Assembly (NCBI GenBank): GCA_964478165.1
Contig: CAYZGU010000039.1
Span: 7,963-71,962 of the forward strand
DNA from: an uncultured bacterium
Lineage (GTDB): Bacteria; Poribacteria; WGA-4E; JAJDTR01
Length of the DNA stretch: 64,000 bases
Direction of reading: 5' to 3'
This document shows positions 1,592-54,748 of the stretch, in pieces; the first letter of the stretch is position 1; each line of letters starts with the position of its first letter. Under the pieces are notes generated by a model that was given only the letters and a program-made list of their open reading frames with translations, was not told where the DNA came from and ran no database searches. A program made the translations under genes and the position numbers.

Positions 1592-3424
1592 CTACTGCAT
1601 CTCCTTCGATAAAACCCCGACTAACACATCGAGATGAACGTGCCGGAAGAATTCCGACAGCCTTTTTTGCTTAGGCTTTTCCGGCAGTAGGATGAAGTCC
1701 GATCGCTTTTGTTGGATCTGTTCAAAGACCTTTCGATAAGCGTTGCTTGTCGCATAAGCAATCGTAAGCTTGTAATGCCCCTCGTACCTGTTGAGGTAGT
1801 CGTTGAATCGGTTTGCACAAAGCTGGATTTGATTTGTGTCGTGGGAAGATAATTGGAACTCGTAGCGTAGTACAGCTTCTTCCGATTCGAATTCCTCAGG
1901 TACGGGGCCATAAAGGCCCGACAGCGTTACTTTGTGGATAGCATCTTGGCGTTCTCCGAGGCCATCGCGGAGCTTTGTGCTGACAATGGTGTGTGTGCGC
2001 GAGCGAGAGTACGGCTTTTTCCCCGCACACGGGATAGTCAAGAGAATGTCCTTGTGTTCAGGTGGTTGATATTCGGGAGCGATAACGAAGGAATTGGGTG
2101 TGTAGTTCAAAGAAATCGGTACTGCTCCCAGGTGTTGGTGCGGGCGTTTTGTCCATGTCGGGAGAGTGACAATCCGTTTAGCTAGTCGTTTGGAAAATTG
2201 ATTGTCATGCTCGCCGAGCCATCCGACTGCATTTTGAATGCCACGAGCATTAGTGGCGTGCTTAACTAAAGCTTCGAGCGCTTGATCAGATTCAATTGCC
2301 AGTTTCATGTCTCTTAGCGTTTTCGCGTCCATTTCGAAGTTGTGGAGCGCGATTGCCGCATAATACTCGCTTTTATATTTTCCTGTCGAAGTCCTTTGAT
2401 AACTTTTGGCTTCCATGAATGCCTGCTGCATCTCTTCGAGTGGAGTGTTTCGACAAACGTGGCATTTGCAGCCTATTGTATCCAATTCCATGACCTTGAG
2501 TTTCTGTTGAGTTTTAGGGTCGGAATAGCTAAGATTCCTTGCGGCCTGGATATAACTTGTGCTATCAAAGCTATCAACTCCTAAGTATGCCAGTATAGGG
2601 GTCAGATTTCCAGAAACTCCGAAGGCATGAATGGGGGTTTGGCGTCGCTTTGATGGTGAGAGAGCGTCGATTACACCGCAAATTCGGGATAGCACTGCTG
2701 AATCATCGAATCCACGTAGAGGTACGAGGGAGCCCACCGCAAGTCCGAACGAAGGTAGGAGACCTTGTACTCGTTCGAAGACTTGAATTACGTAGTTTCG
2801 GACGTCTTCTCTAGATTGTCCGTGACAGCAGATATATAGAAACGGTGGATTAGGTTTGTCGGCAAGGATTTCCGCTACGCGCGTAGCATTGTCGATGCTG
2901 CGTTTCATTCGATTCTCAGCCTCATCGCGTGCAAGGTTTGGAGGGAGGGGATAATCCAATGACGCGAGAATCTCGCCACCGAGATTGAGTTGAAATTCGA
3001 GAATGTCCTCTGCTTCTTTGTCCTTCCGAATTCCATATTGTGAAAGATCTAACCCCGCATTGTAAAGCAACTTGAAGCCCCCTGAATCGAGAAAGATAGG
3101 TGCACCATACGACGCACCGACCTCTTTGTAGCGCTCGCGCATCGGTTTATCTCGCCAGTATGCGATATGGCGGGCCGTGAGGTTGAAATCGAGAAAGTGG
3201 AGCACTTGAGATAACATCGGTACATCTCGTTTCATGAAGTCTCTCAAAAGGTATTTCCAGATACCACCACCACGTGGACTTGTTCCGGTCATGAATGAAC
3301 TGACTGGATACATTATCGGTGTTGGTAAAGCCGATAACGCTTTGCCTTTTCTCATCAAGTTCAATTCGCCGATTCTGCCAGCATTTCGTTCGATTTTCGT
3401 TTGGTATGTTGGTGTGCTGGTCAT
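1592..3424 (-). CDS. tRNA-guanine transglycosylase (TGT) family protein with a ~230-aa C-terminal DUF5591-like extension (archaeosine-synthase-like architecture)
   Basis: 610 aa. TGT hallmarks in order: ETPxxMPV-like N-terminus (LPTPIMYPVSSFMTG), nucleophile region FLDSGGFKL, GLAVGSL, HAFGVSGN, GVDSFDSTSY, and the Zn motif CKCHVC...H. The C-terminal third (LLTIPCAGKKPYSRS...LSGLYGPVPEEFE) lies outside the TIM barrel and resembles the DUF5591 domain of ArcS-type proteins. Confidence 0.7.
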   Translation of the reverse strand: MTSTPTYQTKIERNAGRIGELNLMRKGKALSALPTPIMYPVSSFMTGTSPRGGGIWKYLLRDFMKRDVPMLSQVLHFLDFNLTARHIAYWRDKPMRERYKEVGASYGAPIFLDSGGFKLLYNAGLDLSQYGIRKDKEAEDILEFQLNLGGEILASLDYPLPPNLARDEAENRMKRSIDNATRVAEILADKPNPPFLYICCHGQSREDVRNYVIQVFERVQGLLPSFGLAVGSLVPLRGFDDSAVLSRICGVIDALSPSKRRQTPIHAFGVSGNLTPILAYLGVDSFDSTSYIQAARNLSYSDPKTQQKLKVMELDTIGCKCHVCRNTPLEEMQQAFMEAKSYQRTSTGKYKSEYYAAIALHNFEMDAKTLRDMKLAIESDQALEALVKHATNARGIQNAVGWLGEHDNQFSKRLAKRIVTLPTWTKRPHQHLGAVPISLNYTPNSFVIAPEYQPPEHKDILLTIPCAGKKPYSRSRTHTIVSTKLRDGLGERQDAIHKVTLSGLYGPVPEEFESEEAVLRYEFQLSSHDTNQIQLCANRFNDYLNRYEGHYKLTIAYATSNAYRKVFEQIQQKRSDFILLPEKPKQKRLSEFFRHVHLDVLVGVLSKEMQ

Positions 3425-3502
3425 TTTATTGGTGTGCTTAGGGACGCGAAAAGCCGTTTGGTTGATTCCGGAAGCATTAAAAGCATTAATGATTAACGCA
3501 GG

Positions 3503-3883
3503 TTATTCTGCTTCGAGTCGTGCTGCCCCCCATTCCTTCCCCTCGAGTTCCCGCAGTTCAACTTCTACAGCGCTGAGCTTTACACCCAACGTCCTTAACT
3601 TGGAAGAGACGTGGAAAAAGAAGTGAGCGGCCAACATCTCGCATGTTGGATACGCCGCTTGTTCTTCAGTCAAAGCGGGGTTTTCGTTAAGATAAGTTTC
3701 GGAGAGTTTTTCGACGCATGGATCTGTGATCTCGCGCAGCTTAAGAATGTCAACAACCATACCATGCTTAGGAATGCCCCTCACGTAAAGTTTTAGTGTC
3801 CAGAAGTGGTTGTGTGGCTTTTCTCGGACAGAAAGACTGTGGCTTGCGTAGAATTCAAAAGGGACAATTACCGTTGTATACAA
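3503..3883 (-). CDS. QueD/PTPS-family protein (6-carboxy-tetrahydropterin-synthase-like); catalytic Cys not conserved
   Basis: 126 aa. Aligns by eye along its full length to E. coli QueD (FEFYASHSL ~ FTFEAAHRL; PHNHFWTLKLYV ~ LHGHSFMVRLEI; GMVVDILKL ~ GWIIDFAEL; YLNENPAL ~ YLNDIPGL). The H...HxH Zn triad is present, but the Cys four residues before HxH is replaced (VREKPHNH). Co-oriented 78 bp upstream of the TGT-like gene. Confidence 0.65.
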   Translation of the reverse strand: MYTTVIVPFEFYASHSLSVREKPHNHFWTLKLYVRGIPKHGMVVDILKLREITDPCVEKLSETYLNENPALTEEQAAYPTCEMLAAHFFFHVSSKLRTLGVKLSAVEVELRELEGKEWGAARLEAE

Positions 3884-5254
3884 TATATGCGTATCCTTTC
3901 CTCGGAGAAGGAGAGATGAACAGCTGCAAAAAATGTCATGATAAGTCGCGATTCCGAGCCTCTGAGCTTTGCATACGAAACGCTGTTAGAAAATGGATCA
4001 AGCTAACACGAAGCGATGCGGATAGCATGTTGAAAACGATGAACCTCTTTGTAAAATGTGCTATCCTAGGAGAGTAAACAGATGAATACGGCCTGCAAGC
4101 GGGTGCTAGCATTTAATTGACTGATGATGAGTGCCATGATAGGACAAACTTTCATCTTTGATGGAAATTCGGAAACTATTTATTAGGTTGAGGTCGAGGC
4201 GCGCTAAAGCCAAATTGGTCAATGGTCCTGAGGTTTCGCAGAGGTCGTGCTTGGTACTAGGCCTGATTCTGACTCCTGTGGAGTGATGTTAGGTTTCTAG
4301 ATTGTTTTAGGTCATGTGAGGACGAACCTAGAAGCGCTTCTTATGTTGCACAGTCAATGATTGAGAGGCTTGGTCATTCGCTTTTGTAAGTAACACCCAG
4401 TGTACCATATTTCAACGGGTTTTCCCACACCTTTGCTTGCTTGAATCACCTAATACAGCTTTTTGTCTCAGATTGATTAGGTTTTTCATTGACGATGTTT
4501 ATCACCAATGCTATGATTTGAGCGATGTGGGAGGACGATTGAATAATTCCGCGCGTGGCGTCATCTTGGGCTAGTCTATCTGCGAAGCGCTGTTGGCCGC
4601 ACTTGTTGATTTGGAATCAGATTTTACATCGTCTAGCGCTTGTGGGGCTATGGATTGGACGAGAAATGTTTAGTTTGTGCAAAATTGTCTTGTATCTTGT
4701 GCTCCAGATAATCGCCCTATCAGCTGTTGTAGCCATCACCGCTGCTGACCTGGTGCAAGTGATTTAATGACCTTGAGACTTTCGCGTGGTTGTGTGGTCG
4801 GCGTGGATTGATTCTTGGGTTAGTATTAACGTGCTGTGAATCGTTGTTTGAGTAGCTGTCGGATTTGTGGAAAGTCGTTTGTTGAAAACAGTGTTGGCGG
4901 AAGTGGTTCTGCACTGATAGGCATTCTGCCGTTGACGTACTCCATGGTTCTAATCACAGGAAACATCCGCTGTTCCGAAACCTCCTGTAATCGTGTAGAT
5001 CGTCGAGTTGCTTGGGTTTCTACTGACTCGGTTTCTTCCGATGCTCTCGCAGGTGACTGACGTAGCTCTAAATTTGGGCTATTATCAGTTATGTGTTCCC
5101 GATGATTGTTCTCCGTGTAGGCCCTGAGTGGGAACGGTCGGCCTGCGAAGTCACTTTCACCACGATCTGATTAATGATCCGTTTGCTCAGTATAGAGCTC
5201 GGTAAATTGGAAATATATTTGGGATGTTCTCGCGTGTAAGCTTGATGTTTTTCG

Positions 5255-7213: not shown

Positions 7214-7543
7214 CTATACGCTGAACGATTCTCCACAGCCACATTCTGATTTTGCGTTCGGATTGATAATCTTGAATCCAGAATCCATTAATCCATCCTT
7301 ATAGTCGAGAGTTGATCCTGCGAGATACAGAGTGCTCCGCGGATCAATGTAAATCTTCAAACCGTGGAATTCAAATACCTTGTCGCTTCCTTTGGACTCA
7401 CCAAATTCAAGATTGTACTGGAAACCTGAACATCCCCCGCCAACAATTTGCATGCGTAGGCCAAATCCGTCATCGGTGGAATGACCTTCCTGTTCTATAA
7501 GGCCAATTGCTTTCTGGGCGGCATTTTCAGTAACCGTAATCAT
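7214..7543 (-). CDS. erpA: A-type Fe-S cluster carrier (ErpA/IscA, HesB family)
   Basis: 109 aa. GGGCSGFQY plus a C-terminal CGCGESF, the three conserved Cys of A-type carriers. Overlaps the upstream iscU-like gene by 4 nt. Confidence 0.85.
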   Translation of the reverse strand: MITVTENAAQKAIGLIEQEGHSTDDGFGLRMQIVGGGCSGFQYNLEFGESKGSDKVFEFHGLKIYIDPRSTLYLAGSTLDYKDGLMDSGFKIINPNAKSECGCGESFSV

Positions 7544-7929
7544 GGCAGTTCTCCTGGCTGTGATTTTGCGTTTGACAGATAGTCATGGATTGCTGATTTG
7601 AAGACCTTTTCTGCGTCAATCGCGTATCTTTGTGTTTCGGACGGCAAACCACCTAACGCATTTTCGATGTGATGACTCGTGACCTTCAAGGCTTCTTCGA
7701 TGTGAAGACCTTTTATCAGTTCCGTTACAACGGAACTGACTGCGATGACAGTTGGGCATCCGAATGCCTTGAACTGTGCATCTCCTATCTTACCGTCGAG
7801 AATCTTAATTGATAGTTTTATCATTTCACCATTCGCAGGTGCGCCCACAATTCCCATGCCGTCAGCGTTTTCGATTGTGCCGACGTTCTGCGGGTTTTCA
7901 TAGTGATTCATAATCTGTGGAGTATACAC
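7540..7929 (-). CDS. IscU/NifU-N-like scaffold homolog with non-canonical ligand set
   Basis: 129 aa. HYENPQNVG and GAPAxG(D/E)xMKL align to IscU. Cys1 is replaced by Asn (GAPANGEM), Cys2 is kept (FGCPTV), and the His-Cys3 pair is replaced by Arg-Tyr (TQRYAIDAE). Confidence 0.7.
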   Translation of the reverse strand: MYTPQIMNHYENPQNVGTIENADGMGIVGAPANGEMIKLSIKILDGKIGDAQFKAFGCPTVIAVSSVVTELIKGLHIEEALKVTSHHIENALGGLPSETQRYAIDAEKVFKSAIHDYLSNAKSQPGELP

Positions 7930-8159: not shown

Positions 8160-9590
8160 TCAGCAGAACCAGGGCTCTGTAAGCCGTGGAGCTCGGATTC
8201 GATTCGGTGAGAGCGGTTGATGTCTCGGAGGGGTCTCTCCCTGAATTTCCGCGGCCAGCTCCCACACGTTATGGAATGTCTTTTCAGCCGTCACGCCCAA
8301 TCGAGAATTTTTCTCGACCTTTGTGTTCACAGCTTTGTACAGCTCGTCCATTTGTGGATTAGGGTGCTCCCATCGATAGCTGAAGGAACTCTGGTCGAGC
8401 GTGCCAAGATAGGTCTTCATAGAGGTGCTGTTAAGAAGGAGAGACCCTGGCGGTACTAACAGCCGTATTGTATATTGGACAGGATCGACGTGGTCAATAA
8501 GCCGGTGTCGTTCGACAAATTCGAGCATTTCAAGATAATCGCCTAAGGTCGTCCACGGAGTAAATGCTAGCCAGGTTGGCCGTAGTGAAATGCCGGTGCT
8601 ATGTACGATTGCGATTGCCTCTTTGACATCTGCTCGTGTGTGACTCTTCTTCAGAACCTTAAGGACAGTGTCGCTTAATGATTCCACTGCGGAAACGGTG
8701 AACAAGCACCCGAGTTGACTTAGTTCTGGAAATAAGGTTCGGTGCTTAAGAATATGTTCAATTTTGGAGACAAAGTCGAATGTCAATGACGAAAACTTTT
8801 CGTGCATTTTTCGGACAAGACGCAACGAATGTGTTGGGCCGTTCAAGAAATCCGGATCGCCAAATGAAATGTGTGTCGCTCCTGCATCAACCTGTCTACT
8901 AATGTCCTCCATCACAACCTCTTGTGGAATAGCGAAGAAGCGTCCGCCATATACAGGCGGAATGGGACAATGTGTACAGACGTGTTTACAGCCACGGCTT
9001 GCTTCAACATATCCGATGAGGCGCTGCTCGCCCTGATGTTCAAGACGGGAATAGTTTCTAAGTGATGGTAAGGCACGTCGAGATGGTACCGGAAAGTCTG
9101 TGCGTTGGAGGAAAGGCGTGCTTTCAAGGCTACGTCCAATAATGCCTTCAGGCATATCTAATCTCGAATCTCCTGATGACGAACATTCGTGGTTCTCGAC
9201 CTTTTGGATCAGTGCAAGGAGCGGTTCTTCATATTCACCCGTAATACAGAAGTCTACCCCATTTTTCAGCAGATAATCCGAGTTCAAACCAGCGTAGAGT
9301 CCGTAGAGGCAGATAATTGCATCTGGATTAATTGTGCGAACACGTTCGACAACACTAACTCCTAGGCGTAATGCCGTGTGCATTGGTACCGAAATACCGA
9401 CAAAGCGGGCGCGCATAACCTTCTGGACATCCATGGTCTCAACGGAGACGTCAATTGCCTCCGCTGAAAATCCTGCGCGCTCCAGGACCCCGAGCGGCAT
9501 TGCAACTCCCATGGGTTGACGCCCCAGTTCATAACATGAAATTAGCAGCACTGCACCGGCTGATCGTATTTCTGAGACTCGTTTTTGCAT
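8160..9590 (-). CDS. B12-binding-domain radical SAM protein (class B radical SAM, function unknown)
   Basis: 476 aa. N-terminal Rossmann-like B12-binding region, then CKHVCTHC (Cx3Cx2C) radical SAM cluster motif with the expected spacing. First gene of a minus-strand Fe-S module. Confidence 0.75.
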   Translation of the reverse strand: MQKRVSEIRSAGAVLLISCYELGRQPMGVAMPLGVLERAGFSAEAIDVSVETMDVQKVMRARFVGISVPMHTALRLGVSVVERVRTINPDAIICLYGLYAGLNSDYLLKNGVDFCITGEYEEPLLALIQKVENHECSSSGDSRLDMPEGIIGRSLESTPFLQRTDFPVPSRRALPSLRNYSRLEHQGEQRLIGYVEASRGCKHVCTHCPIPPVYGGRFFAIPQEVVMEDISRQVDAGATHISFGDPDFLNGPTHSLRLVRKMHEKFSSLTFDFVSKIEHILKHRTLFPELSQLGCLFTVSAVESLSDTVLKVLKKSHTRADVKEAIAIVHSTGISLRPTWLAFTPWTTLGDYLEMLEFVERHRLIDHVDPVQYTIRLLVPPGSLLLNSTSMKTYLGTLDQSSFSYRWEHPNPQMDELYKAVNTKVEKNSRLGVTAEKTFHNVWELAAEIQGETPPRHQPLSPNRIRAPRLTEPWFC

Positions 9591-10442
9591 GAATGTTGCC
9601 TCCTTCCCCCTAGCCTAAGGAATTCGAAAGATGGGTTAATTATAACATATTTATCCCACTTGGACAAAAACTAACGGAATTGATTCCGTCTGCTTATCGC
9701 GTGAGGTTGCGTTAAAGTCTGGGGCTATGCATCAGCGGATTCCCAAAACTTATTTGTCAGAATTATAAATGTGTTGCGAGAGGTGTTGTGGATTGGGCCA
9801 ATCATTTTGTAAGTAAGCTACAGCGGATCGTTGTCGTGAGTGGAAACAAACATTTCAACAAATCAGGTCTTGCTCACATTCCAGTGGCTTTCCTGTGAAT
9901 TGTGCCCTATTCTGTTATCCTGCCTGTCCATGAGTGTTCACACCAGAGGGACTTGACAAGCTTTGCATCGATGAAGCAAGGGTTTGGAGTTTGAAGATGC
10001 GATACGAGGTATACTGTGAGGTGTTCTGCTGTAGCTAGTGAACAGATATGGAACACTGTGCTTTTGGTGCTGTACGCACTGAGCTCCTTCCTGCATGAGA
10101 CTGTGCGTGATTGCCTGCGCGAGTGTGATTTCTTAGGGTACACATTGAGCCATTACTAGCCAACGATTGTACTGAACTTGTTATGATTTCGTGAATTTCA
10201 ATACGTCCTACGATTGGGACATAGCTGATGCGCTGCTAATTTGCCGACCGATGAGCACTGGAATTATTAGAAACTATAACTCGATTGCCTAACGTTTGTT
10301 CGCTTATCAAGGTCATTTGGAATAGTGAACACTAAGAAATATCAAGGAAGCTGGACGATTGAATTATAGGTTCCCATTCAGCGAATACGGTTGTCATGAG
10401 AGTTTCTTGTCCGACGTGCTAAATTGAACTCCCTTCTGTTTC

Positions 10443-25147: not shown

Positions 25148-26473
25148 TTAGAAGCTGATTTCTACGGAGGCGACGTTCCAATCTGTTTCGATATTAGCAA
25201 ATCGAGCCACGTGTAGATTGAGGAACTTGAACAGTCGTAAAGTCGCACCATACGTGGAAAACCCTTGATTGTTTCCTACACGTAGGCCTATTGACAACAG
25301 ACTTTTGGGCAGGAAGACTGCCTCGGCACCCAGATGGAGACGGTCATTAAATGAGCCGGACTTGAATTGACCGAGTTGATCGTCACCGTTAGGATCCTTC
25401 AGGGCTCCAGCAATGGTTAGATGACAGATGTCCGTGGCGAGATCTAGTAGTTCAAGTGGTTTTGCCGCGAACGAAATGACAAAGTTTCGCGGGAATTGAC
25501 AATCAACTTCTATTTTAGTACCAGTGGAATGTTTCTGCTTAACGGTGATGCCGCTGATGGAGTTGCGAAGGGTCAATCCGACCTTTAACCCATCGATTGG
25601 AGTAAGTAACGTTCCTACGTCCATACTGTACCCACTTGAAAAATCCAGATTATCAAGCGCAAATTGGCCAAATCCTTCTGCCTTATCGAAATCGAGATAG
25701 TTTTTTTTGAATTCGTCAGGATTAAGGAGATCCGCAATCTCGAAAGGATCGTTTTCATCTGTTACAACTCCCCGTCGAACGAAGCGAATTCCGCAGCCAA
25801 AGCTTGCTGTTTTGAGAAAGGGTTGGTTCGTGGGAATTTGAACGGCTAATGCGGTGGCTAATGCAATTTGACCCGTGACTCGATAGATGACATGATTATC
25901 TAATGCCTCAATCACGGAATCTCGCCACGGTAATCCCCTTTTGACAACCTCTAGGTCTACTTTGCCTTGTGAGTATAGCGACAATCCCAACGTAGCCTGA
26001 TAACGTTCGTCGGAAGCTAGCGGAATAATCATCCCAAACGATGGCAGGCCGACATCGAGACCGAGTCTCTGGGTAAGGAGGTTTTCTGCGCGATTTACAA
26101 GCTTCTCGCGTTCACTGGCTACCGCGGGATCCCTCAGCGGATCATCTGAGGCCATCAACGGCTTGATGGTTTCGTTAAAAAATCTGGTAATCGTATCCAA
26201 CTCACCTGCCAGATCGTCTGTCACTCGTGCACGAAGCGCTAGGAATTGGAAAAGTGTGTTGTCAATCTGTGCTAAACCAGCAGGATTATAGTGTAGCGCG
26301 TTGATGTCATCGGCGACGGCTTCGAACCCGTTTCCTAATCCGAGTGCGCGAGCTCCGTGAAAGAGAAATAGCGGTTCTCTCCCATCTTCTGCAATTGCAA
26401 GAAATGAGATGCTGAACAGTGTCAATGCTAGTAGTGTCGAGACGATAAAGGTTCCTGAACTGGTGAATCTCAT
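25148..26473 (-). CDS. FadL/OmpP1/TodX-family outer-membrane channel for hydrophobic compounds
   Basis: 441 aa. Signal peptide; N-terminal hatch motif GLGNGFEAVADDINALHYNPAGL matches FadL [26 protein letters not shown]; C-terminal Phe. Confidence 0.6.
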   Translation of the reverse strand: MRFTSSGTFIVSTLLALTLFSISFLAIAEDGREPLFLFHGARALGLGNGFEAVADDINALHYNPAGLAQIDNTLFQFLALRARVTDDLAGELDTITRFFNETIKPLMASDDPLRDPAVASEREKLVNRAENLLTQRLGLDVGLPSFGMIIPLASDERYQATLGLSLYSQGKVDLEVVKRGLPWRDSVIEALDNHVIYRVTGQIALATALAVQIPTNQPFLKTASFGCGIRFVRRGVVTDENDPFEIADLLNPDEFKKNYLDFDKAEGFGQFALDNLDFSSGYSMDVGTLLTPIDGLKVGLTLRNSISGITVKQKHSTGTKIEVDCQFPRNFVISFAAKPLELLDLATDICHLTIAGALKDPNGDDQLGQFKSGSFNDRLHLGAEAVFLPKSLLSIGLRVGNNQGFSTYGATLRLFKFLNLHVARFANIETDWNVASVEISF

Positions 26474-26579
26474 TTTGTCTCCTCCATCAGGTTAATAGAG
26501 TTTCAACCTTGTTGGCAAACGAGTGCCATTTGCGCATTGATTTGCGCTGCGACGTGGTTGTTTGGGGCGTTGTAGTACT

Positions 26580-27536
26580 TCACCTAATTTGTCTAATTCG
26601 ATTGCCCAGCGCATTCCTGTCAAAGACAAACCCCCAGTCAATTAGCTCATCTGCAAACGTGATAATGACATCTTCGCCAATCACATCAATGAAGTCTAGA
26701 ATTGCCGCCTCCTGATCGGGTGCCACTTGTTTTGCCAAAGCCAGTGCATGTTCAAGATGGAACAGTGCATCCTGCTGGTATATCGTACGATCAACCCGTG
26801 CTATGTCGGCCTCAATTGGGTGTCCATCGATGTCCTTGACATTCGGAAACCCCGGGACTGATGCGCTTGGACTGGCTAGCAAAGCCAACGCAAGAAGTAT
26901 GCTCTGGCGTTCGCTAGCACGAAACTGCCCAAGTAGATCTCCCGGTCGCCTGTTTGAATCGCTCTCAACTTGTCTGAATACGTCTGTTCGTATGTTTCCA
27001 CGTGGGGCCAGACCAATTTTATACCTAGTGGGATTTGGCAAATGGCTAACGAATAGAAGATCGTCGTCGGTTCCTTGGATGCCATCGAGTCCAAAGCCTT
27101 CTATTAGTATCAACCTGACGGCTTCCAATGTATAGAGTCGAACGAGATCGAGGTGAATAAACATCAAATCAGTATCAGAAATTGGCAAAAATAGTTGGGA
27201 TGGAGCTGCCAGACTGAGTGTCGAAATTCCGTGATTCAGCGCATCTAGGAGTCTGTAGTAGCCAGCAATGGCCTGCTGAAGCTCATCCTCAAGTACCACT
27301 AATTCAAATGGATCTAACAACAATTCAGATGCGAGATCAGCAACGTCCCCGAGGTTTGAGAAATTCAGGAGAATTCCAGCGTCTTCGAGTCCCTGCTGTG
27401 TTTGATTAAAAATCTCTTTTGCTTCTTTCAGACTAGACTGCTCCGGTTCATGAACATGCATGCGTTCGGAACAAGACAAGAGAAAAATAATAAAAATGGC
27501 TATGGAGCTAGTGAAAAATGTATGTTGAATATACAT
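26580..27536 (-). CDS. Hypothetical lipoprotein (signal peptide with LLSC lipobox), acidic and Leu-rich
   Basis: The ORF is open to 27602, but MYIQHTFF...IFLLSC gives a lipoprotein signal peptide. No recognisable domain. Co-oriented immediately upstream of the FadL-like gene. Confidence 0.4.
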   Translation of the reverse strand: MYIQHTFFTSSIAIFIIFLLSCSERMHVHEPEQSSLKEAKEIFNQTQQGLEDAGILLNFSNLGDVADLASELLLDPFELVVLEDELQQAIAGYYRLLDALNHGISTLSLAAPSQLFLPISDTDLMFIHLDLVRLYTLEAVRLILIEGFGLDGIQGTDDDLLFVSHLPNPTRYKIGLAPRGNIRTDVFRQVESDSNRRPGDLLGQFRASERQSILLALALLASPSASVPGFPNVKDIDGHPIEADIARVDRTIYQQDALFHLEHALALAKQVAPDQEAAILDFIDVIGEDVIITFADELIDWGFVFDRNALGNRIRQIR

Positions 27537-28106
27537 TAACAAGTGGCGCGATGTCCTTAGGCCAATAATCGGGCTTTGTCGAGTCGTAATGGTTTTATGC
27601 ATTTCCTTTTTCTCCGATTTGTGTCTGCGGTGATGAATTCATGCAGGTAGTGGATGATTGATTTGGGTAACATGAGTCCTGTGCTTCACGGTCAACCAAT
27701 GCAATAGGTATGCCAAATGAGCCTGTCGAAAACGATGGCCGATGGAAGTGAGGAACATATTCGGTGATTACGAATGCTAAAACGATAGAAAGTAATTAGT
27801 CAATAACACGACGTAGGGCGGTCTTCAGAGGGGATTGCGAAGCGTCAGTTTTCCTCGGGTTTGAATTCAGTTCCATTTATCATTCGCGACTTCAGGGGGG
27901 AATAAGTAGGTTAGGTGCGACTTGCCCAAGCGGGTTGTAAATCCAGTTTAAAGTATACTTTTTCATTCATCTGTGCAGTACGGGATAAGATTCGCACACA
28001 CTGCCCATGTCTTTTCTCGATTAAAATGGTTCAACAAAAGAGCGGTAATGCGTTTGCGTCCTTGGGTTAGGCCCAGGACAGATTTTGGTTATTCGTAAGT
28101 ATTTCG

Positions 28107-29378: not shown

Positions 29379-31619
29379 TAAGGTCTCCTGACTATGGGGA
29401 TTGAAGGTTGGACCAATTTTCGCGGGTTCTGCATTTCTAATGTAGCCTTGCATCGAATCTAAATCTGGGATTTCATCCACTATTCTGTGCCAGCTGCATG
29501 CGACGGGCGTGGAGATCTTTATCTTGTTGAAAGCTTCTACTATTGGGTAAACGTCCATTTACCTAATCACGTTTCAAGCCAAAATTTCATCATATTCATC
29601 AAGTCTTGAGTGTTCAAATATATAGTGCAATAGCGCCTGCTTGTAGCTCATGTCGAATTCGCGAATACGGTATATGGACCAAGAACAGATTTCTGTTCGC
29701 CAATACTTGGTGGTGTATCAGAGAAAGCAAGCTTTTGAAAGGCTCGTATCTGCTTCTTGACCATCTGTCTGAATGCTCATTATGAGATGCTGAGACAGTG
29801 CGCGTCCTAGACGATAACAGCGGTAAACGACAACACGGGTAGGAGAAAATCCAGACGTCAGAAGCGACGCCTGCATCGGATTTACAATCATTCCGAGCAC
29901 CCCATATTTGAAAATTGTCTTTCGATGGCAGGGTCTGTGAATCCGTCTGCACGAGTCGTTGTCATGGGCAGTTATGTTGGCACTCAGGTTCGAAATCGAA
30001 TTGGTGGTGCGTGCGTTCGATAACGGTACTCGTCGCAATAATCCGGATTTCGAGGTCGTACTTGGGAAAGATAGCGAGACAAATACTACCTCCACATTTC
30101 TGTCAAAAGGTTGCGTATCTCGTTTAATCCGTTCGAATGGCGGAAGAGCTAATTTGGAATTATTAGGAAAGAGCGGGATTCCTATGCAATCAGATGGAAT
30201 TGGCGTTGCAGCTTGATTTTCCGGAAATCTAGTCCCATGTTTTGGCAATTAATATGTCGGGCTATTGGAAACAAGCTGGACCGCTCTTCCATCTGGGCAG
30301 AAATCGAGAAGATGGAGATCCGCATTAGTACGATCTGCCTTTTGTACTGGAGGAAAGCGTCCTGATTTATAAGCTAACATGTTGGGTAAATTTGACAAGG
30401 TTGTACTGCTTGTTCCGTTTCGAGGGTGCTCAGCTACATGATTCCTGATGATGTTTGTGTTTGCAGAGAAGTTCAGGAGAATGTGGATCGCTTAAAAACC
30501 TGGTCCATGTTATCACACTTTGATTGATGGGCGCATCTTTCTCATTGTTGACTTGATTATAGCGGTGTATTGCATGGAACACAAGAGACTTTAACAAACA
30601 CCTGATAACAACAGATTTGGAAGTCTGGGTCTCGATCCTTATTCTGGTATCATATTCGAATAAGCTTCCACGAATAATCGTTGGCATACGATAGGGAGGC
30701 GCCAAATAGGATTGAATTGAAGACAGAGCGAGGCGGTATTCTGTAAAAATTAATAAGCCAATTCCATCTAGAATGGCAAGGATTAGGGACTGAGTATTAC
30801 ATGTAAGACCTCAAGGCTCGTGCGATTGTGCATGTAACTAACTGTTCAAAAGCCTCACTGTTCCCTCACTATTCAATTGGACTGTTAGGGAACTACATGC
30901 CGTTCATAAACAAGTACGTAGAAGGGAGGATACGGTTTGCTGTGACTTGAAAATCCGCATGGAAAGTGTCAGTGTTGATTACTTGTGTGCCGGTGTGGAC
31001 CTGCGATGGTGGAAATATATCAGCAAAATGGAATTTTTACCAATGCTCAAACAATGGGCAACATTTTGAATGCGAAGATGAGGAGTTGTTGTATCTTCTT
31101 CTTTTTCTTCTCGCTTTGAAGGTGTATTTACAACCAGTGTATGCTTATTGAACCCCAACATGCTATTGTCATATGTTTGCGCTGTTTTTTCGTCCAGTGG
31201 TGTTCTTTCATTGGGGCGTAGATGCGAATTCAGCAACGCCTGCCATCGAGACTGTCAAGCATAACATCAAGAAAGACATGCAGAGTGTGGGAAGATAGTG
31301 GAGTGAAATTAGTACACATAGTTTCAACAGGTACCCATTATTGAAAATGAAACGGCAGAGAAGTTACTATTCGATGAGATTAACGGTTATCGGAACTTGA
31401 CAAAATCCACTAGTAACTCCCTCTTGCTCGCACAATCAATTTGATTGACGTGCAAATTACGGATATGCTAAGATAGGAGGCGGCTCTCACGAAGGTGCCT
31501 ATGTGGCGTGTGGCCGCATGTAGGAGGCTATTCGAAATTGGTGGAATCTGAATGTTTGTGGAACTATGTTGTTTAATGTTTGGAAGAAAGTGTCAAAATA
31601 GATTAAGGGAGACGCGTGT

Positions 31620-44132: not shown

Positions 44133-47100
44133 ATGAAGCACTCATGGAGAGGTCAATTTGTGTTTTGCCTCGTAGTCGTGACTGTCTTTTGCGTTTTGAG
44201 TTTACTGCTAGGTTGCAAGAAGGAAGTAACTCGCAAAGCCGATTGGGAAACCCATTTCACAGCCCTGCATTTTATTGATCCTAAACATGGATGGGTTGTC
44301 GGGCGAGGAGGTCTAATCATCCACACGGCTGATAGTGGAAAAACATGGGCAAAACAAGAGGTCGATACGAATGGCGACTTCAAGTCCGTCTGCTTTACAA
44401 ATAGGCGCTTTGGTTGGGCTGTTGGAGACGAAGGACTTATTGCGACGACGGATGATGGCGGACGTCATTGGTATCTTCAGCACAGTGGAACGTGGGCATT
44501 CTTGCGTGACGTCTTTTTCGCCAATTCCAACGAGGGGTGGATTGTTGGTGAAAGCGCTGATGTGCTGTATACCCAAGATGGCGGAAAGACATGGAAACGC
44601 CAAGAATTCGTGAGTGAATTCCCTCTTAGTGGTGCATGCTTTGTGGACAATCGCCGGGGCTGGGTCGTCGGAGAACAGGATCGTATTTTGCACACTAATG
44701 ACGGTGGGAGAACCTGGCGTAACCAGAGCAATCGATTTGAGGGCGAAAGAGACCGCATGATCAATGACAATAAGCAGGTCTTCTTTATCAATCGAAATAA
44801 AGGATGGATTGTTGGTAGCGACGGTTCCATATTCCATACAAGAAACGGCGGGGTTCGATGGACACGTCAGGATAGCCGTATTCCGCTCATTAACGGACAC
44901 GTCCGAGACACAATTAATAGCGTTCACTTTGTTGATGAGAATCGTGGCGTGGCGGTGGCTGATATCGGTTTTATCACTTTGACGATGGATGGTGGAGACA
45001 ATTGGCGATTGTTGGAAAGTGGAACTGAGAATAACCTTACCGGAATTCAGTTTGTTACGCAAAAAGAGGCGTGGGCGGTTGGCTGGTATGGGAGTATTCT
45101 GCATTCGAAAGATGGTGGTGAAACGTGGGAAATGGTTAGTGGAACAACGGCCAACGACCTAGAGAATGTTCAGTTTGCCGATGCCAATCGTGCGATTGCT
45201 GTTGGCAAGCGTGGTACAATTGCAATGAGTCAAGATGCCGGGAAAACGTGGACGGAGATTGAAAGTGATATATGGGACAATATTCGCAACATTTTTTTTG
45301 TTTCTGACAAAGAAGGTTGGGCGGTTGGCGAACGCGGTATGGTTGTCCATTCGATTGACGGCGGACAATCATGGGAACGTCAGGACAGCGGTTGGGGCAA
45401 TGTCCTTACTGCCGTTCATTTTGTCACACCACAAAAAGGGTGGATCGTCGGCGAACTTGGAACGGTACTTCACACTGCCAATGGTGGAGAGTCGTGGGTG
45501 CCGCAGACTCCAGGCGAATGGCAATCGCTTAAGGGTGTTTTCTTTCTGAATGAGAACGAAGGTTGGGCGGTCGGTTGGCCTGGGACAGTTATTCACACTA
45601 ACAATGGCGGGATGACCTGGACGAACCAGACTACAAATACTTACAATGAGCTATATGCGGTTTATTTTGTTGATCCCGACAAGGGTTGGATTTCTGGTCA
45701 GTTCGGAGAGATTTTGTCCACAAAGGATGGTGGTCAAACATGGAAATTTCAACGCAGCGGGACCGAGGCGAACTTGAACAAGATTTATTTCGCGAATTCA
45801 ACACATGGAATCATTGTGGGTGACAATGGGACAATCCTGACCACGGTAGATGGTGGTGTGAAATGGCAGCTGCAGGAGAGCGGGACAGAGAATGACCTCT
45901 ACGGATTTGCACTCTCCAGTGAAGGGATGGTTGCTGTTGGCAAAGGAGGTATTGCCATGCGGTACTCTGTCGATGCTGCCGAACTACCGGTCGAGCTGCC
46001 TCCGGTTTCAGATCGGATTCAGGTCGGAGTTCAAATTCAAGAGCTGTCCACTGTCGAAGAAGTGAGTTATCAATGGGAGATTATCCGCCAGGCAACATGG
46101 GAAACTGACTTTAACGACACCTGTTTTGTCGATAATAAACGGGGTTGGGCGGTCGGAACCGGGGGTGTAATTGCGCACACAATAGACAGCGGGAAAATAT
46201 GGAAACCACAGCATAGCGGCGTGGAGATAGACTTGTATCAAATCGATTTTCTGAATGCTCAACACGGATGGATTACCGGTAGTGGAGTGTTGTTGCGCAC
46301 TGAGAACGGCGGTGAGACATGGCAGGTTATTCGAAAGGTGTTGCAGAATTTTCGTGACATCAGTTCCATACAATTCATTACACCTAAAGAAGGATGGCTT
46401 GCCGTCGATGAAGGACAAACGCTACATACAATTGATGGGGGTTTAACTTGGAAGCTTCAGAAAACGGGTGCCACGAATAAAGCAATTACCGATCTACACT
46501 TTATCAACGGCCAAGAAGGTTGGGCTGTTGTGCCACAACGCCGCGATGGGGGCTACATTCTACATACGGTGAATGGTGGTGATTATTGGCAGATTCAATC
46601 AAAAACCAATCAGTTAGGTCTTGCAATTCACTTTACAGATGCCAAATATGGTTGGATAGTTGTTGGAAATGGGACTTCGCTTATTACGAGCGATGGTGGT
46701 CTCACATGGACGCGTCGGGCATCTAAACTTGCGGGTCGTATTCATCGGGTAAAAATACGTAGTGACAAGGAGGCTTGGGCAGTTGGACGCGATGGCGAGA
46801 TTCTCTTAACACGTGACCAAGGAGTCACATGGGAGTCAATCTATGTCGATCACACCCCTGACAAGATGAGCTTGGCGCTGGTGAATGAGAGTATGCAACC
46901 GGCCAAAGAATCTGTGGAGAAACTGACAAGAGTCGAGTCGGATGGCGATACAACTCGCGTAACAATCGAAGAGAATCCCGTAGAGGCGTTCCAAAATAGG
47001 CTTCGCAATCGGCGTCAACGTTCCGGTCGGTTCGCGCCAGAAGGCGGGGAAATTGATCTGGAGACACGGTCGAAACCCACAGAGTCAGTGACTCCACCTG

Positions 47101-48140
47101 AATCGAGGCGCACTCCTCCTAGCTCAGCACAACAGATTGTGGGTTTTTACTTTGTTAACGATCAAGACGCTTGGGCCGTTGGTAAATACGGTCATATCTA
47201 TCGAACGAAGGATGCTGGACATTCTTGGACAAGACAGCTCGGTGAGAAGCTCGATGATTTCCGCGATGTGCTGTTTGTGGATGGAGACAATGGTTGGATT
47301 GCCGGGGATAACGGATTGTTACTAGAGACGCAGGATGGTGGTCGGAAGTGGGTCCCCGTCAAAAGTGGCATTCACCAAAAGATAATAGGTGTTCACTTTG
47401 CTAGCCTTGATCCAAAGTGGGGTTGGGTGATGAGACGCGACGGGACCGTGTTTTATACAACTGATGGAGAAAATTGGTCCGCGGGGACGACGCCAACCCG
47501 TCCACCTCTATTTGAGGAGGACCAACCACGTCCATTTGCTATGAATGACGTAGGTTTCAGCCAGTTTTCCGAAGGATGGGCAGTTGGGAACGATGGACAA
47601 ATAATCCACAATCAAGATGGTGGCCCTATTTGGATCGCGCAGCGCACGACGACGGGCAGGGACCTGGTGGACGTGGAAACAAAGTTTGTTCCTCTGGCTT
47701 GGGCGGTAGGATCCGGGGGGACTGTGCAGAGGACGATTAACGGTGGTGGATATTGGAAGCTTCATGAGACTAACACTGGCTACGATCTCAATGGGGTTTC
47801 ATTTCTTGAGAAAAGGAAGGGGTGGGCGGTTGGTCGTTATGGTATAACTCTGCGTACAACCGACGGTGGTTTTACTTGGCGGGCCCAATCGAGTGGAACG
47901 ACAACCGATTTCTACGACATTCTCGCGGTCTCTGAAGAGGAAATCTATGTCGTTGGGGCCAATGGAACAGTGCTTCACTCGATTGATGGTGGTAAGACAT
48001 GGAATAAGCAACACACAGACATTGACAATGATCTCTACGCCATTACTTACGCGCAAGACAGCAATGTGCTGTGGGTTGTTGGCGAGTGGGGTGTTGTGTT
48101 ACGGCAAGAGATTGCTACTAATAAACTTCCGCTTCATTGA
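44133..48140 (+). CDS. Giant lipoprotein made of about 27 BNR/Ycf48-like beta-propeller blades (probably four propellers)
   Basis: 1335 aa. Signal peptide with LLLGC lipobox. Roughly 42-aa repeats, each with GW(A/I)VG...ILHT.DGG.TW (27 D/NGGxTW-type motifs counted), interrupted by two charged linkers. Confidence 0.8.
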   Translation: MKHSWRGQFVFCLVVVTVFCVLSLLLGCKKEVTRKADWETHFTALHFIDPKHGWVVGRGGLIIHTADSGKTWAKQEVDTNGDFKSVCFTNRRFGWAVGDEGLIATTDDGGRHWYLQHSGTWAFLRDVFFANSNEGWIVGESADVLYTQDGGKTWKRQEFVSEFPLSGACFVDNRRGWVVGEQDRILHTNDGGRTWRNQSNRFEGERDRMINDNKQVFFINRNKGWIVGSDGSIFHTRNGGVRWTRQDSRIPLINGHVRDTINSVHFVDENRGVAVADIGFITLTMDGGDNWRLLESGTENNLTGIQFVTQKEAWAVGWYGSILHSKDGGETWEMVSGTTANDLENVQFADANRAIAVGKRGTIAMSQDAGKTWTEIESDIWDNIRNIFFVSDKEGWAVGERGMVVHSIDGGQSWERQDSGWGNVLTAVHFVTPQKGWIVGELGTVLHTANGGESWVPQTPGEWQSLKGVFFLNENEGWAVGWPGTVIHTNNGGMTWTNQTTNTYNELYAVYFVDPDKGWISGQFGEILSTKDGGQTWKFQRSGTEANLNKIYFANSTHGIIVGDNGTILTTVDGGVKWQLQESGTENDLYGFALSSEGMVAVGKGGIAMRYSVDAAELPVELPPVSDRIQVGVQIQELSTVEEVSYQWEIIRQATWETDFNDTCFVDNKRGWAVGTGGVIAHTIDSGKIWKPQHSGVEIDLYQIDFLNAQHGWITGSGVLLRTENGGETWQVIRKVLQNFRDISSIQFITPKEGWLAVDEGQTLHTIDGGLTWKLQKTGATNKAITDLHFINGQEGWAVVPQRRDGGYILHTVNGGDYWQIQSKTNQLGLAIHFTDAKYGWIVVGNGTSLITSDGGLTWTRRASKLAGRIHRVKIRSDKEAWAVGRDGEILLTRDQGVTWESIYVDHTPDKMSLALVNESMQPAKESVEKLTRVESDGDTTRVTIEENPVEAFQNRLRNRRQRSGRFAPEGGEIDLETRSKPTESVTPPESRRTPPSSAQQIVGFYFVNDQDAWAVGKYGHIYRTKDAGHSWTRQLGEKLDDFRDVLFVDGDNGWIAGDNGLLLETQDGGRKWVPVKSGIHQKIIGVHFASLDPKWGWVMRRDGTVFYTTDGENWSAGTTPTRPPLFEEDQPRPFAMNDVGFSQFSEGWAVGNDGQIIHNQDGGPIWIAQRTTTGRDLVDVETKFVPLAWAVGSGGTVQRTINGGGYWKLHETNTGYDLNGVSFLEKRKGWAVGRYGITLRTTDGGFTWRAQSSGTTTDFYDILAVSEEEIYVVGANGTVLHSIDGGKTWNKQHTDIDNDLYAITYAQDSNVLWVVGEWGVVLRQEIATNKLPLH

Positions 48141-48232: not shown

Positions 48233-49204
48233 ATGAAATTGAATTTCAAACTGAGTGGTGCATTAATAGTTTCAACCCTGTTGCATGTAATTGTTGGTGT
48301 GGTTGGGTTTTTCTTTTGGCTTAACACCGCCTCAGTTCCTCATCAGGATTCCATTGGCGCGGTGTTAATTAAGGTCGATCGGCCGAAACTCGAGCGCAAG
48401 CTCCGTCCGAAACGTGCGCAAATTCGAAAAAGTACATTGAATGAAACAAACCAGCCCAGGCTTAAGGTTCTTACTAGCAATACCCCGGTAACAGAACGTG
48501 GTGTTTTCACGGCGGAGGAACCGGCAAAATTCAGTGCGGTAGAATTCTTGCAATTTAGCGACGGCGCTGCCTTGGATACGAATGGTATAAGATTGGACGA
48601 AAGTGCACTCCAGATTGGAAGGGTAATTGAAAACCCTATCGTTAGAGGTTCCAAACAGGAAGTTCGACCGAAAAGCCGTTTGGTAAAATTCGTCGAAAAT
48701 CAGGAAGGTCCACAGGCAATAGCCTACTGTATCGATCTGTCGTCAAGCATGCTGAGTTTGAGCCCGAGAAAACTCAAAAAGATAATCTCCATCATGCAGA
48801 ACTCACTGACATTTCTTGAGGCTCACGATCGATTCAATATTGTGACTTTCAGCGATGAAACGGCATTTTTTCAACCCCATTTTGTGGATTCCACGGAACA
48901 AGTGATTTTGCAAGGAGCAAGCTACTTTGCCGCAGCGAGTCCCCGCAAGACTACTGGCTATATGGAAAAGGACATGCTTAAGGCGCTGGCAGAAGTTGCG
49001 AAAATGGATCCCACGATTATTGTGATTTTCAGTGATGGTATTTTGACTTCTGGCGTGCCAAATCCGAAGGAGATTCGGCGAACCGCTGCTGCAAGCCCGC
49101 GTGTCTTTGCAATGGGAATTGAGATGGCGGAAGATTTTCCTGGGGCTGTGTTGCTCGACATGTTGGCGCATTACAGCGATGGTGAATTTTGGTTGGTTGA
49201 CTGA
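48233..49204 (+). CDS. Membrane-anchored von Willebrand factor A (VWA) domain protein
   Basis: N-terminal TM helix. VWA MIDAS motif AYCIDLSSSM, then ...NIVTFSD... and IVIFSDG. Confidence 0.7.
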   Translation: MKLNFKLSGALIVSTLLHVIVGVVGFFFWLNTASVPHQDSIGAVLIKVDRPKLERKLRPKRAQIRKSTLNETNQPRLKVLTSNTPVTERGVFTAEEPAKFSAVEFLQFSDGAALDTNGIRLDESALQIGRVIENPIVRGSKQEVRPKSRLVKFVENQEGPQAIAYCIDLSSSMLSLSPRKLKKIISIMQNSLTFLEAHDRFNIVTFSDETAFFQPHFVDSTEQVILQGASYFAAASPRKTTGYMEKDMLKALAEVAKMDPTIIVIFSDGILTSGVPNPKEIRRTAAASPRVFAMGIEMAEDFPGAVLLDMLAHYSDGEFWLVD

Positions 49205-53058: not shown

Positions 53059-53907
53059 ATGCACTATCTGACGCGCCAGGCCACATTTGAAGCCTCACAC
53101 TTCTACTGTATTCCAGGTGTAAGTCATGAAGAAAACTATCGAATCTTTGGTTCAAGCGCGAATCCAAACGGGCATGGACACAACTATGTAGTTGAAGTGA
53201 CTATTAGGGGAACTGTCTCCGAAGAACATGGAATGGTTATTAATATTGCGGAGCTTGATAGACTTCTCAAAGATCAAGTGCTTGTGTGCTATGATCACAA
53301 AAATTTAAATCGTCAACATCTCATATTTTCGAAAAATCCCCATCTTCAGCCGACGAGCGAGAACATTGCAATCCAGATATGGTCCGCACTTACGCCTGTT
53401 CTTAAACTAGCGCAACTATATCGTATTCGACTACGTCAGGACTCATCTCTGTTTGCTGATTACTATGGAGAAGAACAGATGGTTTACCTTACGAAAGCCT
53501 ACGAATTCAGTGCTTCGCATTGCTTGCACAGTCAACATCTCAGTGACAAGGAGAACCTGCAGATTTTTGGCAAATGCAACAATCCACATGGCCATGGTCA
53601 TAATTACGTGCTTGAGGTGACAATAAAGGGAGACGTCCTGCCTAAAACAGGCATGATTGCCAATCTTGATCTCCTTGATGAAATCGTACAAGAACAGGTT
53701 TATGCGAGATTTGACCACAAGCATCTCAACCTTGACACGCCGGAATTCGGAGATCTCAATCCAACGTCCGAGAATTTTGTAACAGTGATTTGGAATGTTT
53801 TAGAACCGACTTTGGGATCTGTGACTCTACATCGCCTTCGGTTGAAAGAAACACCTAAGAACTACTTTGACTATTACGGTGAATCATCAGAGGTTGACAT
53901 CTTATGA
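53059..53907 (+). CDS. Fused tandem 6-pyruvoyl-tetrahydropterin synthase (two PTPS domains)
   Basis: Two about 140-aa PTPS halves. The second has the eukaryote-type catalytic site [14 protein letters not shown]. The first has [14 protein letters not shown], with Cys replaced by Ser. The stop overlaps the folE start (ATGA). Confidence 0.8.
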
Positions 53908-54599: not shown

Positions 54600-54748
54600 C
54601 GGTTAGGACACTCATGAGGCAGGCCTTCGAAGGAACATCAGAAGCTTTTTAAATGATAATGGTCTTTTTATACGGGACGTTCAGGTTGTCGAAAAACTCT
54701 GTTTCGCTGTTTTAACGATGGTAGTTTTCTTATTTTAACGGAGCTGTT

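Follow-up and report, generated by a model that had tools for sequence, protein, structure and literature searches.

A candidate two-step 7-deazaguanine enzyme in Poribacteria: a TGT-ArcS-core fusion with relatives beside restriction genes

The gene pair and the domains of its proteins

Two adjacent genes on the minus strand of a 64,000-nucleotide stretch of contig CAYZGU010000039.1, from an uncultured member of the Poribacteria, are the subject of this analysis, and “the window” below means the whole of that stretch. The upstream gene (3503..3883) starts with TTG and encodes a T-fold protein of 126 aa of the PTPS/QueD type (Pfam PTPS, E 9e-16). The downstream gene (1592..3424) starts with ATG and encodes a protein of 610 aa (pI 9.05), in which open reading frame (ORF) calling and Pfam searches found a tRNA-guanine transglycosylase (TGT) domain fused to a DUF5591 domain, the core of archaeosine synthase (ArcS). 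All features of the pair that are described below lie on the same strand.

The spacer between the two genes (3425..3502) is 78 bp long, as the initial annotation, a reading of the sequence alone, had given it. We looked for terminator-like and promoter-like sites on its coding strand and found none, and since no terminator-like site separates the genes, their co-transcription is plausible. A GGAAAGGA-like ribosome-binding site lies just 5' of the TTG start. Orthologs of both proteins align from residue 1 (over residues 1-610 for the TGT-DUF5591 protein), which supports both start codons, and the median dN/dS is 0.086 for the TGT-DUF5591 gene and 0.053 for the PTPS-like gene, indicating strong purifying selection on both. 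Because of these alignments and these low ratios, both ORFs are regarded as real genes and not as chance ORFs. The closest relatives are all from Candidatus Poribacteria, at 99% to a short metagenomic contig and at 58-70% to many metagenome-assembled genomes.

The TGT catalytic domain occupies residues 1-416 (2177..3424) and consists of a TIM barrel, a Zn subdomain and trailing helices. Pfam TGT (PF01702) covers residues 106-385 (E 7e-19), and in a phmmer search against the PDB residues 82-335 matched the archaeal TGT (ArcTGT, TgtA) of Pyrococcus horikoshii, 1iq8 (E 3.5e-16). It turned out from the alignment to 1iq8 that the complete catalytic apparatus, as initially annotated, is present. DSGGF (residues 113-117; 3074..3088), invariant in two family alignments (A1 and A2), supplies Asp113, the equivalent of the general acid/base Asp95 of ArcTGT; LDYPLPP (2939..2959) supplies Asp157, the equivalent of Asp130, which reads the base along its Watson-Crick edge; and GVDSFDS (residues 282-288; 2561..2581) supplies Asp287, the equivalent of the covalent nucleophile Asp249. 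The Zn ligands Cys319, Cys321 and Cys324 come from CKCHVC (residues 319-324; 2453..2470), which aligns with CSCPVC of ArcTGT and is invariant in A2, and the fourth ligand is presumably His361 of ALHNF (residues 359-363; 2336..2350; H361-N362 invariant), by analogy with other TGTs. Across A1 and A2, all seven residues (D113, D157, D287, C319, C321, C324 and H361) are invariant or nearly so.

In bacterial TGTs of the preQ1 type the substrate pocket reads GGLAVGE, with a Leu-Ala peptide switch and its Glu (also PMC5699537). The corresponding segment of the 610-aa protein is VGSLVPL, which aligns with IGGVVPL of ArcTGT and is thus of the Pro-Leu type, not of the bacterial one. At the position of ArcTGT Gln169 stands His201 of CCHGQ (2816..2830), which never varies in A2 and hardly varies in A1. 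When the family was compared with phage 9g DpdA by hhalign, whose pairwise E-values are single comparisons, CCHGQ fell on CFHAG with the two His aligned (probability 87%, E 3.7e-6); DpdA reportedly reads the Watson-Crick edge through Asp130 and His181 (PMC10164549). The Pro-Leu segment together with His201 therefore makes this domain ArcTGT-like overall, with a DpdA-like detail.

Among the curated models, only that of the general TGT superfamily was passed (64.6 bits; cut-off 47.6). The protein failed the queuosine TGT equivalog (TIGR00430, Q_tRNA_tgt; 25.9 bits against a cut-off of 306.75), the TgtA model (TIGR00432; 87.1 against 350), the DpdA model (NF041059; 16.8 against 200) and the ArcS model (NF040592; 86.4 against 440, with model positions 142-411 of 575 matched), and PADLOC DpdA was matched at E 3e-4 over residues 228-295 only.

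The C-terminal domain (residues 436-610; 1595..2119) is an ArcS core of the C1 type: Pfam DUF5591 (PF17884) covers residues 451-576 (E 2e-14), and residues 457-578 match AF0587 (2q07) in a phmmer search against the PDB (E 6e-6). Within it, PCAGKKPYSRSRTH (residues 465-478; 1991..2032) is an exact copy of the PC-x3-KPY-x2-S-x2-H motif that defines the ArcS catalytic core (PMC10516641, PMC5699537). Counted by clade, this signature is kept by 14 of 14, 4 of 4, 14 of 14 and 48 of 58 family members. The family alignments reveal a second conserved motif in the domain, SGLYGPVP (1898..1921). In the AlphaFold model of the whole protein (pLDDT 89, pTM 0.86), two confidently predicted domains are joined by a disordered, flexible linker (residues 423-433; 2126..2158; pLDDT below 50), and the structural matches of this model are the TGT family, with ArcTGT as the best Foldseek match, and AF0587. 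No PUA domain (Pfam) or C2 domain was found in the 610-aa protein, so DUF5591 is the C-terminal-most domain; the precomputed Pfam domains of the homologs are likewise TGT and DUF5591 alone in every one among the matches listed. The Pfam and AlphaFold checks that had been proposed at the outset were thus run, and they separate two likenesses that had been drawn for the extension: that to ArcS holds, and that to DpdA-like enzymes was dropped, as DpdA proteins themselves lack DUF5591.

The PTPS-like partner was aligned with E. coli QueD, with the canonical QueDs that neighbour distant members of the family and with a tandem PTPS encoded elsewhere in the window. In ASHSL...REKPHNH (3806..3847), the three Zn-binding His (H15, H24 and H26) are kept, and an invariant Arg20 replaces the catalytic Cys of QueD (alignments A3 and A4; E. 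coli QueD 4ntk/4ntm); the first reading of the sequence had noticed the kept His and the missing Cys. To this we can add the loss of the Asp-His dyad of QueD: where QueD has LDHHYLN, the partner has LSETYLN (3686..3706), and in its family (S/A)(E/D) stands in for the dyad. Besides, PTCE (3638..3649) contains a conserved Glu82 after a nearly invariant Cys81, where canonical QueD has Ser or Ala; as in other T-fold proteins, Glu82 presumably anchors the base. The predicted structure is a T-fold (pLDDT 76.8) with P. horikoshii PTPS (2dtt/2dj6) as the best PDB match, and the QueD model (TIGR03367) was failed with 33.8 bits against a cut-off of 89.25. Since both the Cys and the Asp-His dyad are lost and the QueD cut-off is missed, the partner cannot belong to the known kind of 6-carboxytetrahydropterin synthase. 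Most likely it is an accessory Zn protein that binds or alters a 7-deazaguanine base or adduct.

Relatives and gene neighbourhoods

To find relatives, 1.84 billion cluster representatives were scanned with HMMER, which gave 648 hits, of which 100 fell below 1e-30; among the 150 matches listed, about 50 are full-length, with roughly 27-46% identity. The fusion family comprises about 100 clusters at 50% identity from Poribacteria, cyanobacteria, Anaerolineae and halophiles, and members could be named in Allocoleopsis franciscana, Nostoc, Dendronalium, Limnoraphis and Anaerolineae. No viral members were found when the 610-aa protein was run by tblastn against 50,697 phage genomes and a profile-derived scan was made of 2.9 million viral contigs, and the PTPS-like protein had no tblastn match among the same phage genomes either. 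A phage origin of the two genes was therefore rejected.

We collected 99 related loci, called ORFs mechanically and clustered all neighbouring ORFs. After dereplication, the most distant clade (below 40% identity) comprises 40 groups, for the most part found in hypersaline metagenomes; the pI of its proteins is 4.6-5.0. Here the TGT-DUF5591 gene heads a conserved operon with a DUF6884 protein (21 of 40 groups), a TGT-only paralog (25 of 40) and a GHKL ATPase (25 of 40). Canonical QueD, QueE and QueC flank the operon in 8 of 40 groups each, and other flanking genes encode a DpdJ-like helicase (PADLOC E 5e-54), a DpdK-like phospholipase D (PLD) nuclease (4e-11), GIY-YIG proteins, PbeA and SMC-like ATPases. 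The neighbourhood check suggested by the initial annotation gave a mixed answer: dpdC-like, dpdJ-like and dpdK-like genes as well as queC and queE do occur beside distant members, and no dpdB was identified. In the halophile operons (L039-L098; e.g. L043, 4440-4901, and L068, 58-1302), there are two apparently active TGT paralogs, the TGT-only one being about 414 aa long with DSGGF, GADTFDSS and CDCPVC.

The DUF6884 neighbour matches the DpdC and YaaA models, and hhalign aligned the DUF5591 domain of the family with the DUF6884 cluster over 108 columns (probability 91%, E 1e-6 as a single comparison). The alignment pairs PCSxxKPY with SCSKxK, SGLYGPVP with the LSAxhGl of DUF6884/DpdC-like proteins, and YDy with YDr. 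DpdC hydrates the preQ0 nitrile in DNA. These alignments suggest that DUF5591 (the ArcS core), DUF6884 and DpdC-like domains may form one superfamily of preQ0-nitrile-modifying domains, and the halophile operon may encode a heteromeric transglycosylase with two nitrile-modifying domain homologs.

The clade at 40-46% identity contains 12 groups. In four of them, cyanobacteria included, a DUF262 protein that matches NsnA (1e-58) and PD-T4-2_A is encoded directly downstream, and a HEPN protein comes next in three of these four. Other groups of this clade have NurA-HerA, the DISARM proteins DrmA/DrmB, or a PglZ-like/AAA/HerA set that resembles BRC; neighbours seen in relatives include GmrSD_N with HEPN as well as NurA/HerA. 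Five groups, spread over the two distant clades, have an adjacent gene for the YhhQ/Vut_1 preQ0 transporter, and in one locus (L033) a canonical QueD lies immediately upstream of the TGT-DUF5591 gene. As QueC/D/E, YhhQ and defence genes recur nearby, the family is tied to preQ0 supply and to DNA-restriction machinery.

In Allocoleopsis franciscana (L015; CP003630.1, ~4.92 Mb) and Nostoc (L017; JBALEL010000062.1), the TGT-DUF5591 gene lies directly 5' of the NsnA/PD-T4-2_A-like DUF262 and HEPN genes within a mobile-looking island, which also holds genes for a transposase, Uma2, helix-turn-helix (HTH) proteins, toxin-antitoxin pairs and a giant SACS/NOV_C protein.

In Poribacteria the setting is of another kind. 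In nine species-level groups, the surroundings of the gene are stable and of a housekeeping type, with genes for RsgA, Pth, a sugar-phosphate-isomerase-like TIM barrel, a class III aminotransferase, cyclophilin, a KamA-like radical SAM protein and DUF433. The only recurrent partner is the PTPS-like gene, mostly ~4 bp upstream. In L001, a histidine kinase gene is inserted between the two genes, and in L002 the insert (1770-2759, plus strand) overlaps the start of the TGT gene and encodes an N6/N4 DNA methyltransferase with a Rho_N/SAP-like N-terminus (methyltransferase matches: Pfam 1e-49; PADLOC MTase_II/orphan MTase 1e-74). Where it is intact, the partner is better conserved than the TGT gene (77-83% against 64-70% identity). 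In L006, L008 and L013 (~9859-9996), only its last 21-45 codons remain, directly 5' of an intact TGT gene, and in L010 and L012 (9609-9996) it is interrupted or frameshifted, with long-read assembly errors as a possible cause. Because of such remnants and interruptions beside intact TGT genes, the partner appears dispensable in some Poribacteria. The Poribacteria gene, vertically inherited and with no nuclease partner, resembles an orphan modification enzyme.

In the window itself, the gene pair neighbours MobA/MoeA and IscU/IscA, and MoeA-MobA is also common to L001. No homolog of QueC or QueE was found by tblastn over the whole 64 kb, which agrees with the initial statement for these two; the same statement about QueF rests where it was, as QueF was not specifically searched. 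With short TGT, DUF6884, GHKL, DpdJ and DpdK queries, tblastn of the window returned only the gene itself and a PTPS 50 kb off. No riboswitch, tRNA or other RNA element was detected near the pair. The pair is flanked by ORF-poor DNA, 1.37 kb upstream (3884-5254) and 0.65 kb downstream (943-1591), in which searches for Rfam families, for tRNAs and for remnants of the intervening genes of L001 gave nothing; the upstream stretch contains a small plus-strand ORF of about 52 codons (3919-4077) that is rich in Cys and Lys (MNSCKKCHDK...).

About 50 kb from the pair, three adjacent genes (53059-55474, plus strand) form an apparent tetrahydrobiopterin-type pterin cluster, which consists of a 282-aa tandem (two-domain) PTPS, FolE (GTP cyclohydrolase I, 53904-54599) and a short-chain dehydrogenase (54749-55474). 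In the tandem PTPS, the Cys is missing from the N-terminal half, and the PTPS-II motif CxxxxxHGH is found in the C-terminal one, so that, with the PTPS-like partner, the window contains three PTPS domains, each of its own kind. A B12-binding radical SAM protein of 476 aa (8160-9590, minus strand) is encoded ~4 kb from the pair, beside IscU-like and IscA-like genes (7214-7929, minus strand). Neither this protein nor the KamA-like radical SAM protein was retained as a RaSEA-like partner, since neither is conserved beside the gene across the Poribacteria loci. Elsewhere in the window, ORFs of 441, 340 and 176 aa (25148-27602 and 29718-30248, minus strand) have no Pfam match at E<=0.001, and a 1335-aa ORF (44133-48140, plus strand) is followed by genes for a VWA-domain protein (48233-49204) and a sigma-54 activator (49549-51156).

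Proposed activity and its alternatives

We propose, with a probability of roughly 0.55, that the 610-aa protein is a two-step 7-deazaguanine enzyme on one polypeptide, which inserts preQ0 and then converts its nitrile, and that DNA is its favoured target. As the catalytic residues of the TGT domain are intact, an exchange of guanine for preQ0 can be expected: the domain would flip out the target guanine, which Asp287 would displace to give a covalent sugar-enzyme intermediate with Asp113 as acid/base, and preQ0, the nitrile base, would then be installed, read by Asp157 and the DpdA-type His201. As the ArcS motif is intact too, conversion of the nitrile can be expected to follow. The tethered ArcS core would attack the inserted nitrile through its PCxxxKPYxxSxxH site, and the product might be an amidine (archaeosine, G+, for example, or a lysine adduct) or possibly an amide. 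The homology of DUF5591 to the DpdC-like DUF6884 supports such an action of the fused domain after insertion. In this scheme the fusion would be the equivalent of phage DpdA2 plus ArcS2, or of DpdA plus DpdC. The initial annotation had suggested a non-canonical 7-deazapurine base-exchange module, and the ArcS core, the failure against Q_tRNA_tgt and the links of relatives to QueC/D/E, YhhQ and Dpd-like genes strengthen that idea.

DNA is favoured because the family, taken together, shows the pattern of a self-marking module plugged into restriction or defence islands, Dpd-like ones among them. The choice draws on the neighbourhoods, the DpdA-type His, the methylase gene of L002 and the precedent of ArcS2 and DpdA2, which make dG+ in DNA, and further on the finding that ArcS needs only a preQ0 nucleoside 5'-phosphate (PMC11298593). 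The absence of a PUA domain, the basic character of the Poribacteria protein and the purifying selection on its gene also fit.

Several points weigh against this proposal. The substrate base, the product and the target nucleic acid are all predicted from sequence, and the defence-island neighbours are compatible with an action other than the marking of self-DNA. By sequence, the TGT domain is nearest to ArcTGT, a tRNA enzyme (E 6e-29, 24% identity), and not to DpdA, and the solved DpdA structure was not recovered by the profile search at E<=1. Nuclease, helicase, restriction and Dpd-like neighbours are absent from the Poribacteria-clade loci, whose housekeeping synteny suits a housekeeping RNA modification equally well, and tblastn found no preQ0 genes in the window. 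Besides, the role given to the partner is a guess, and in three loci the partner has decayed to a remnant beside an intact TGT gene.

These points lead to the strongest competitor, a bacterial archaeosine-type tRNA enzyme that serves as housekeeping in Poribacteria, inserting preQ0 into tRNA for the ArcS core to turn into G+ or a relative. The nearest sequence and profile relatives, ArcTGT and ArcS, speak for it, as do the strong purifying selection, the vertical conservation beside Pth and RsgA with no nuclease partner, and the fact that ArcS chemistry is established on tRNA (PMC11298593). The C2 and PUA tRNA-binding domains are missing; this tells against a tRNA target, and yet PMC11298593 cites a reference in which PUA is reported as dispensable for ArcTGT activity. 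Further reasons to judge a tRNA target rather unlikely lie in the company that the family keeps: all more distant members occur in DNA-restriction or defence contexts with Dpd-like genes, the gene of the cyanobacterial carriers lies in a mobile, defence-like island, and one member of the Poribacteria clade has a DNA methylase gene inside its operon (L002). The His at the Gln169 position is also DpdA-like.

The same defence-island neighbours would fit equally well a TGT-fold effector or modifier with some other target, which could excise or replace bases in invading DNA, deazaguanylate a protein as Cap10 of type IV CBASS does, or act in a small-molecule deazapurine or pterin pathway, as the T-fold partner could hint. 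We find this improbable, as conservation extends to the full nucleic-acid TGT apparatus, to the Zn subdomain and to the basic pI, the scores of tRNA and DNA TGTs far exceed that of Cap10, and the co-occurring genes for preQ0 supply and uptake suit a consumer that inserts the base. The ArcS core, moreover, works on a preQ0 nucleotide (PMC11298593). The idea of a TGT fold recruited to a new pterin substrate, raised when the locus was first read, found no support beyond the T-fold partner. As for an ordinary queuosine TGT with a lineage-specific tail, next to the QueD of the genome, public annotations of the relatives (“tRNA-guanine transglycosylase”, “6-carboxytetrahydropterin synthase”) and the score above the general superfamily cut-off are what one would expect of it. 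It is nevertheless largely refuted and very improbable, since the Q_tRNA_tgt score is far below the cut-off, the pocket is GSLVPL of the ArcTGT type and not GGLAVGE, the tail is a conserved ArcS core, and the neighbour lacks the Cys, Asp and His of QueD and falls well short of the QueD model.

If the proposal of a two-step enzyme on DNA is extended to the whole family, TGT-ArcS-core fusions could be a self-contained “write” module that sets an amidine (archaeosine-like) mark in DNA and has been combined with at least six restriction back-ends; those seen near the family are Dpd-like, DISARM, Menshen/PD-T4-2-like, NurA-HerA, BRC and Pbe-associated islands. Poribacteria might have domesticated the module into a phylum-wide orphan epigenetic or protective mark, together with a neofunctionalised, Zn-dependent QueD paralog that makes or edits an undescribed 7-deazaguanine. 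This extension is offered tentatively, as a speculation that may well prove wrong.

The bacterial Dpd system and phages are known to put 7-deazaguanines into DNA, with one protein for insertion (DpdA) and another for nitrile conversion (DpdC, ArcS2, Gat-QueC). One polypeptide that performs both steps near many restriction machineries would, if true, be a compact and portable DNA-marking device, and it would add to the defence systems known to tell self from non-self by 7-deazaguanine. In Poribacteria, an uncultivated phylum known above all for its sponge symbionts, the nuclease-free vertical conservation, if it has this meaning, would give the first indication that a whole lineage carries a 7-deazaguanine mark in its cellular nucleic acid. 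The rewired QueD paralog may prove to carry out new T-fold chemistry on deazapurines. As Allocoleopsis franciscana PCC 7113 and Nostoc are carriers available in culture, the idea is directly testable.

Comparison with known systems

The ingredients of the locus are known already, namely TGT, the ArcS core, QueD paralogs and 7-deazaguanine restriction-modification systems. In the literature that we searched, DUF5591 is mentioned only in a 2023 phage study, a fused TGT-ArcS-core in bacteria is not described, and nothing was found on Poribacteria and queuosine, on archaeosine in cyanobacteria or on a TgtA3/TgtA4 nomenclature. Undescribed in it are the occurrence of the fusion beside many restriction back-ends, its domestication in Poribacteria as read here, and the QueD paralog that lacks the Cys-Asp-His triad.

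Among defence systems, BRC with TGT/GNAT (PMC12839542, 2026) is close to one relative (L027/L028), in which PglZ-like, AAA and HerA genes come after the fusion gene, as they do in BRC. The paper proposes TGT-based self-marking and mentions no ArcS/DUF5591 domain (PMC12839542), BRC is only one of the at least six back-ends seen with the fusion family, and no BRC components lie near the Poribacteria gene. With DpdA of the Dpd system (7ui4), the fusion shares the His at the Watson-Crick-edge position, by the 9g DpdA alignment, and the three invariant Asp; DpdA lacks the fused nitrile-modifying domain, and the window lacks Dpd restriction genes.

The PTPS-like partner has in common with QueD (PTPS-I) the three Zn-binding His and the anchoring Glu, whereas the catalytic Cys and the Asp-His dyad are gone. 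The phage QueD paralog DpdL, also Cys-less (LxxxHRHxF), has been proposed as a decarboxylase of 7-carboxy-7-deazaguanine (CDG) (PMC10516641). Both are T-fold PTPS proteins in which the Cys of CxxxHGH is replaced (here RxxxHNHxW, a motif that is merely analogous), but the partner has also lost the Asp-His dyad and gained a conserved Cys81. We consider a DpdL-like decarboxylase role unlikely for the partner, because a nitrile-free 7-deazaguanine would leave the strictly conserved nitrile-reactive ArcS site with no substrate.

The best match of the fusion by sequence and by Foldseek is ArcTGT (TgtA; 1iq8, 1j2b), with which it shares the catalytic Asp pair, the substrate Asp, the CxCxxC...H Zn site and the Pro-Leu pocket, so that a substrate of the preQ0 (nitrile) type is expected. 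It differs in that the C1-C2-PUA part of ArcTGT is replaced by an ArcS-type Rossmann-like core with no C2 or PUA, in the change of Gln169 to His, and in its bacterial hosts with relatives in defence islands.

ArcS has a reduced TGT-like N-terminus as well as C2 and PUA, transfers lysine to preQ0, and works with the radical-SAM protein RaSEA. The fusion has instead a complete TGT domain, which by its residues looks catalytically competent, has no PUA, and no RaSEA-type gene is adjacent to it; what it shares with ArcS and ArcS2 is the match to DUF5591 and to part of the ArcS model, with the exact PCx3KPYx2Sx2H signature. ArcS requires no folded tRNA (PMC11298593). In phages, ArcS2 is a DUF5591-only protein separate from DpdA, and together with DpdA2 it yields dG+ in DNA (PMC10516641). 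ArcS2 with DpdA2 is thus the two-protein counterpart of the TGT-DUF5591 fusion.

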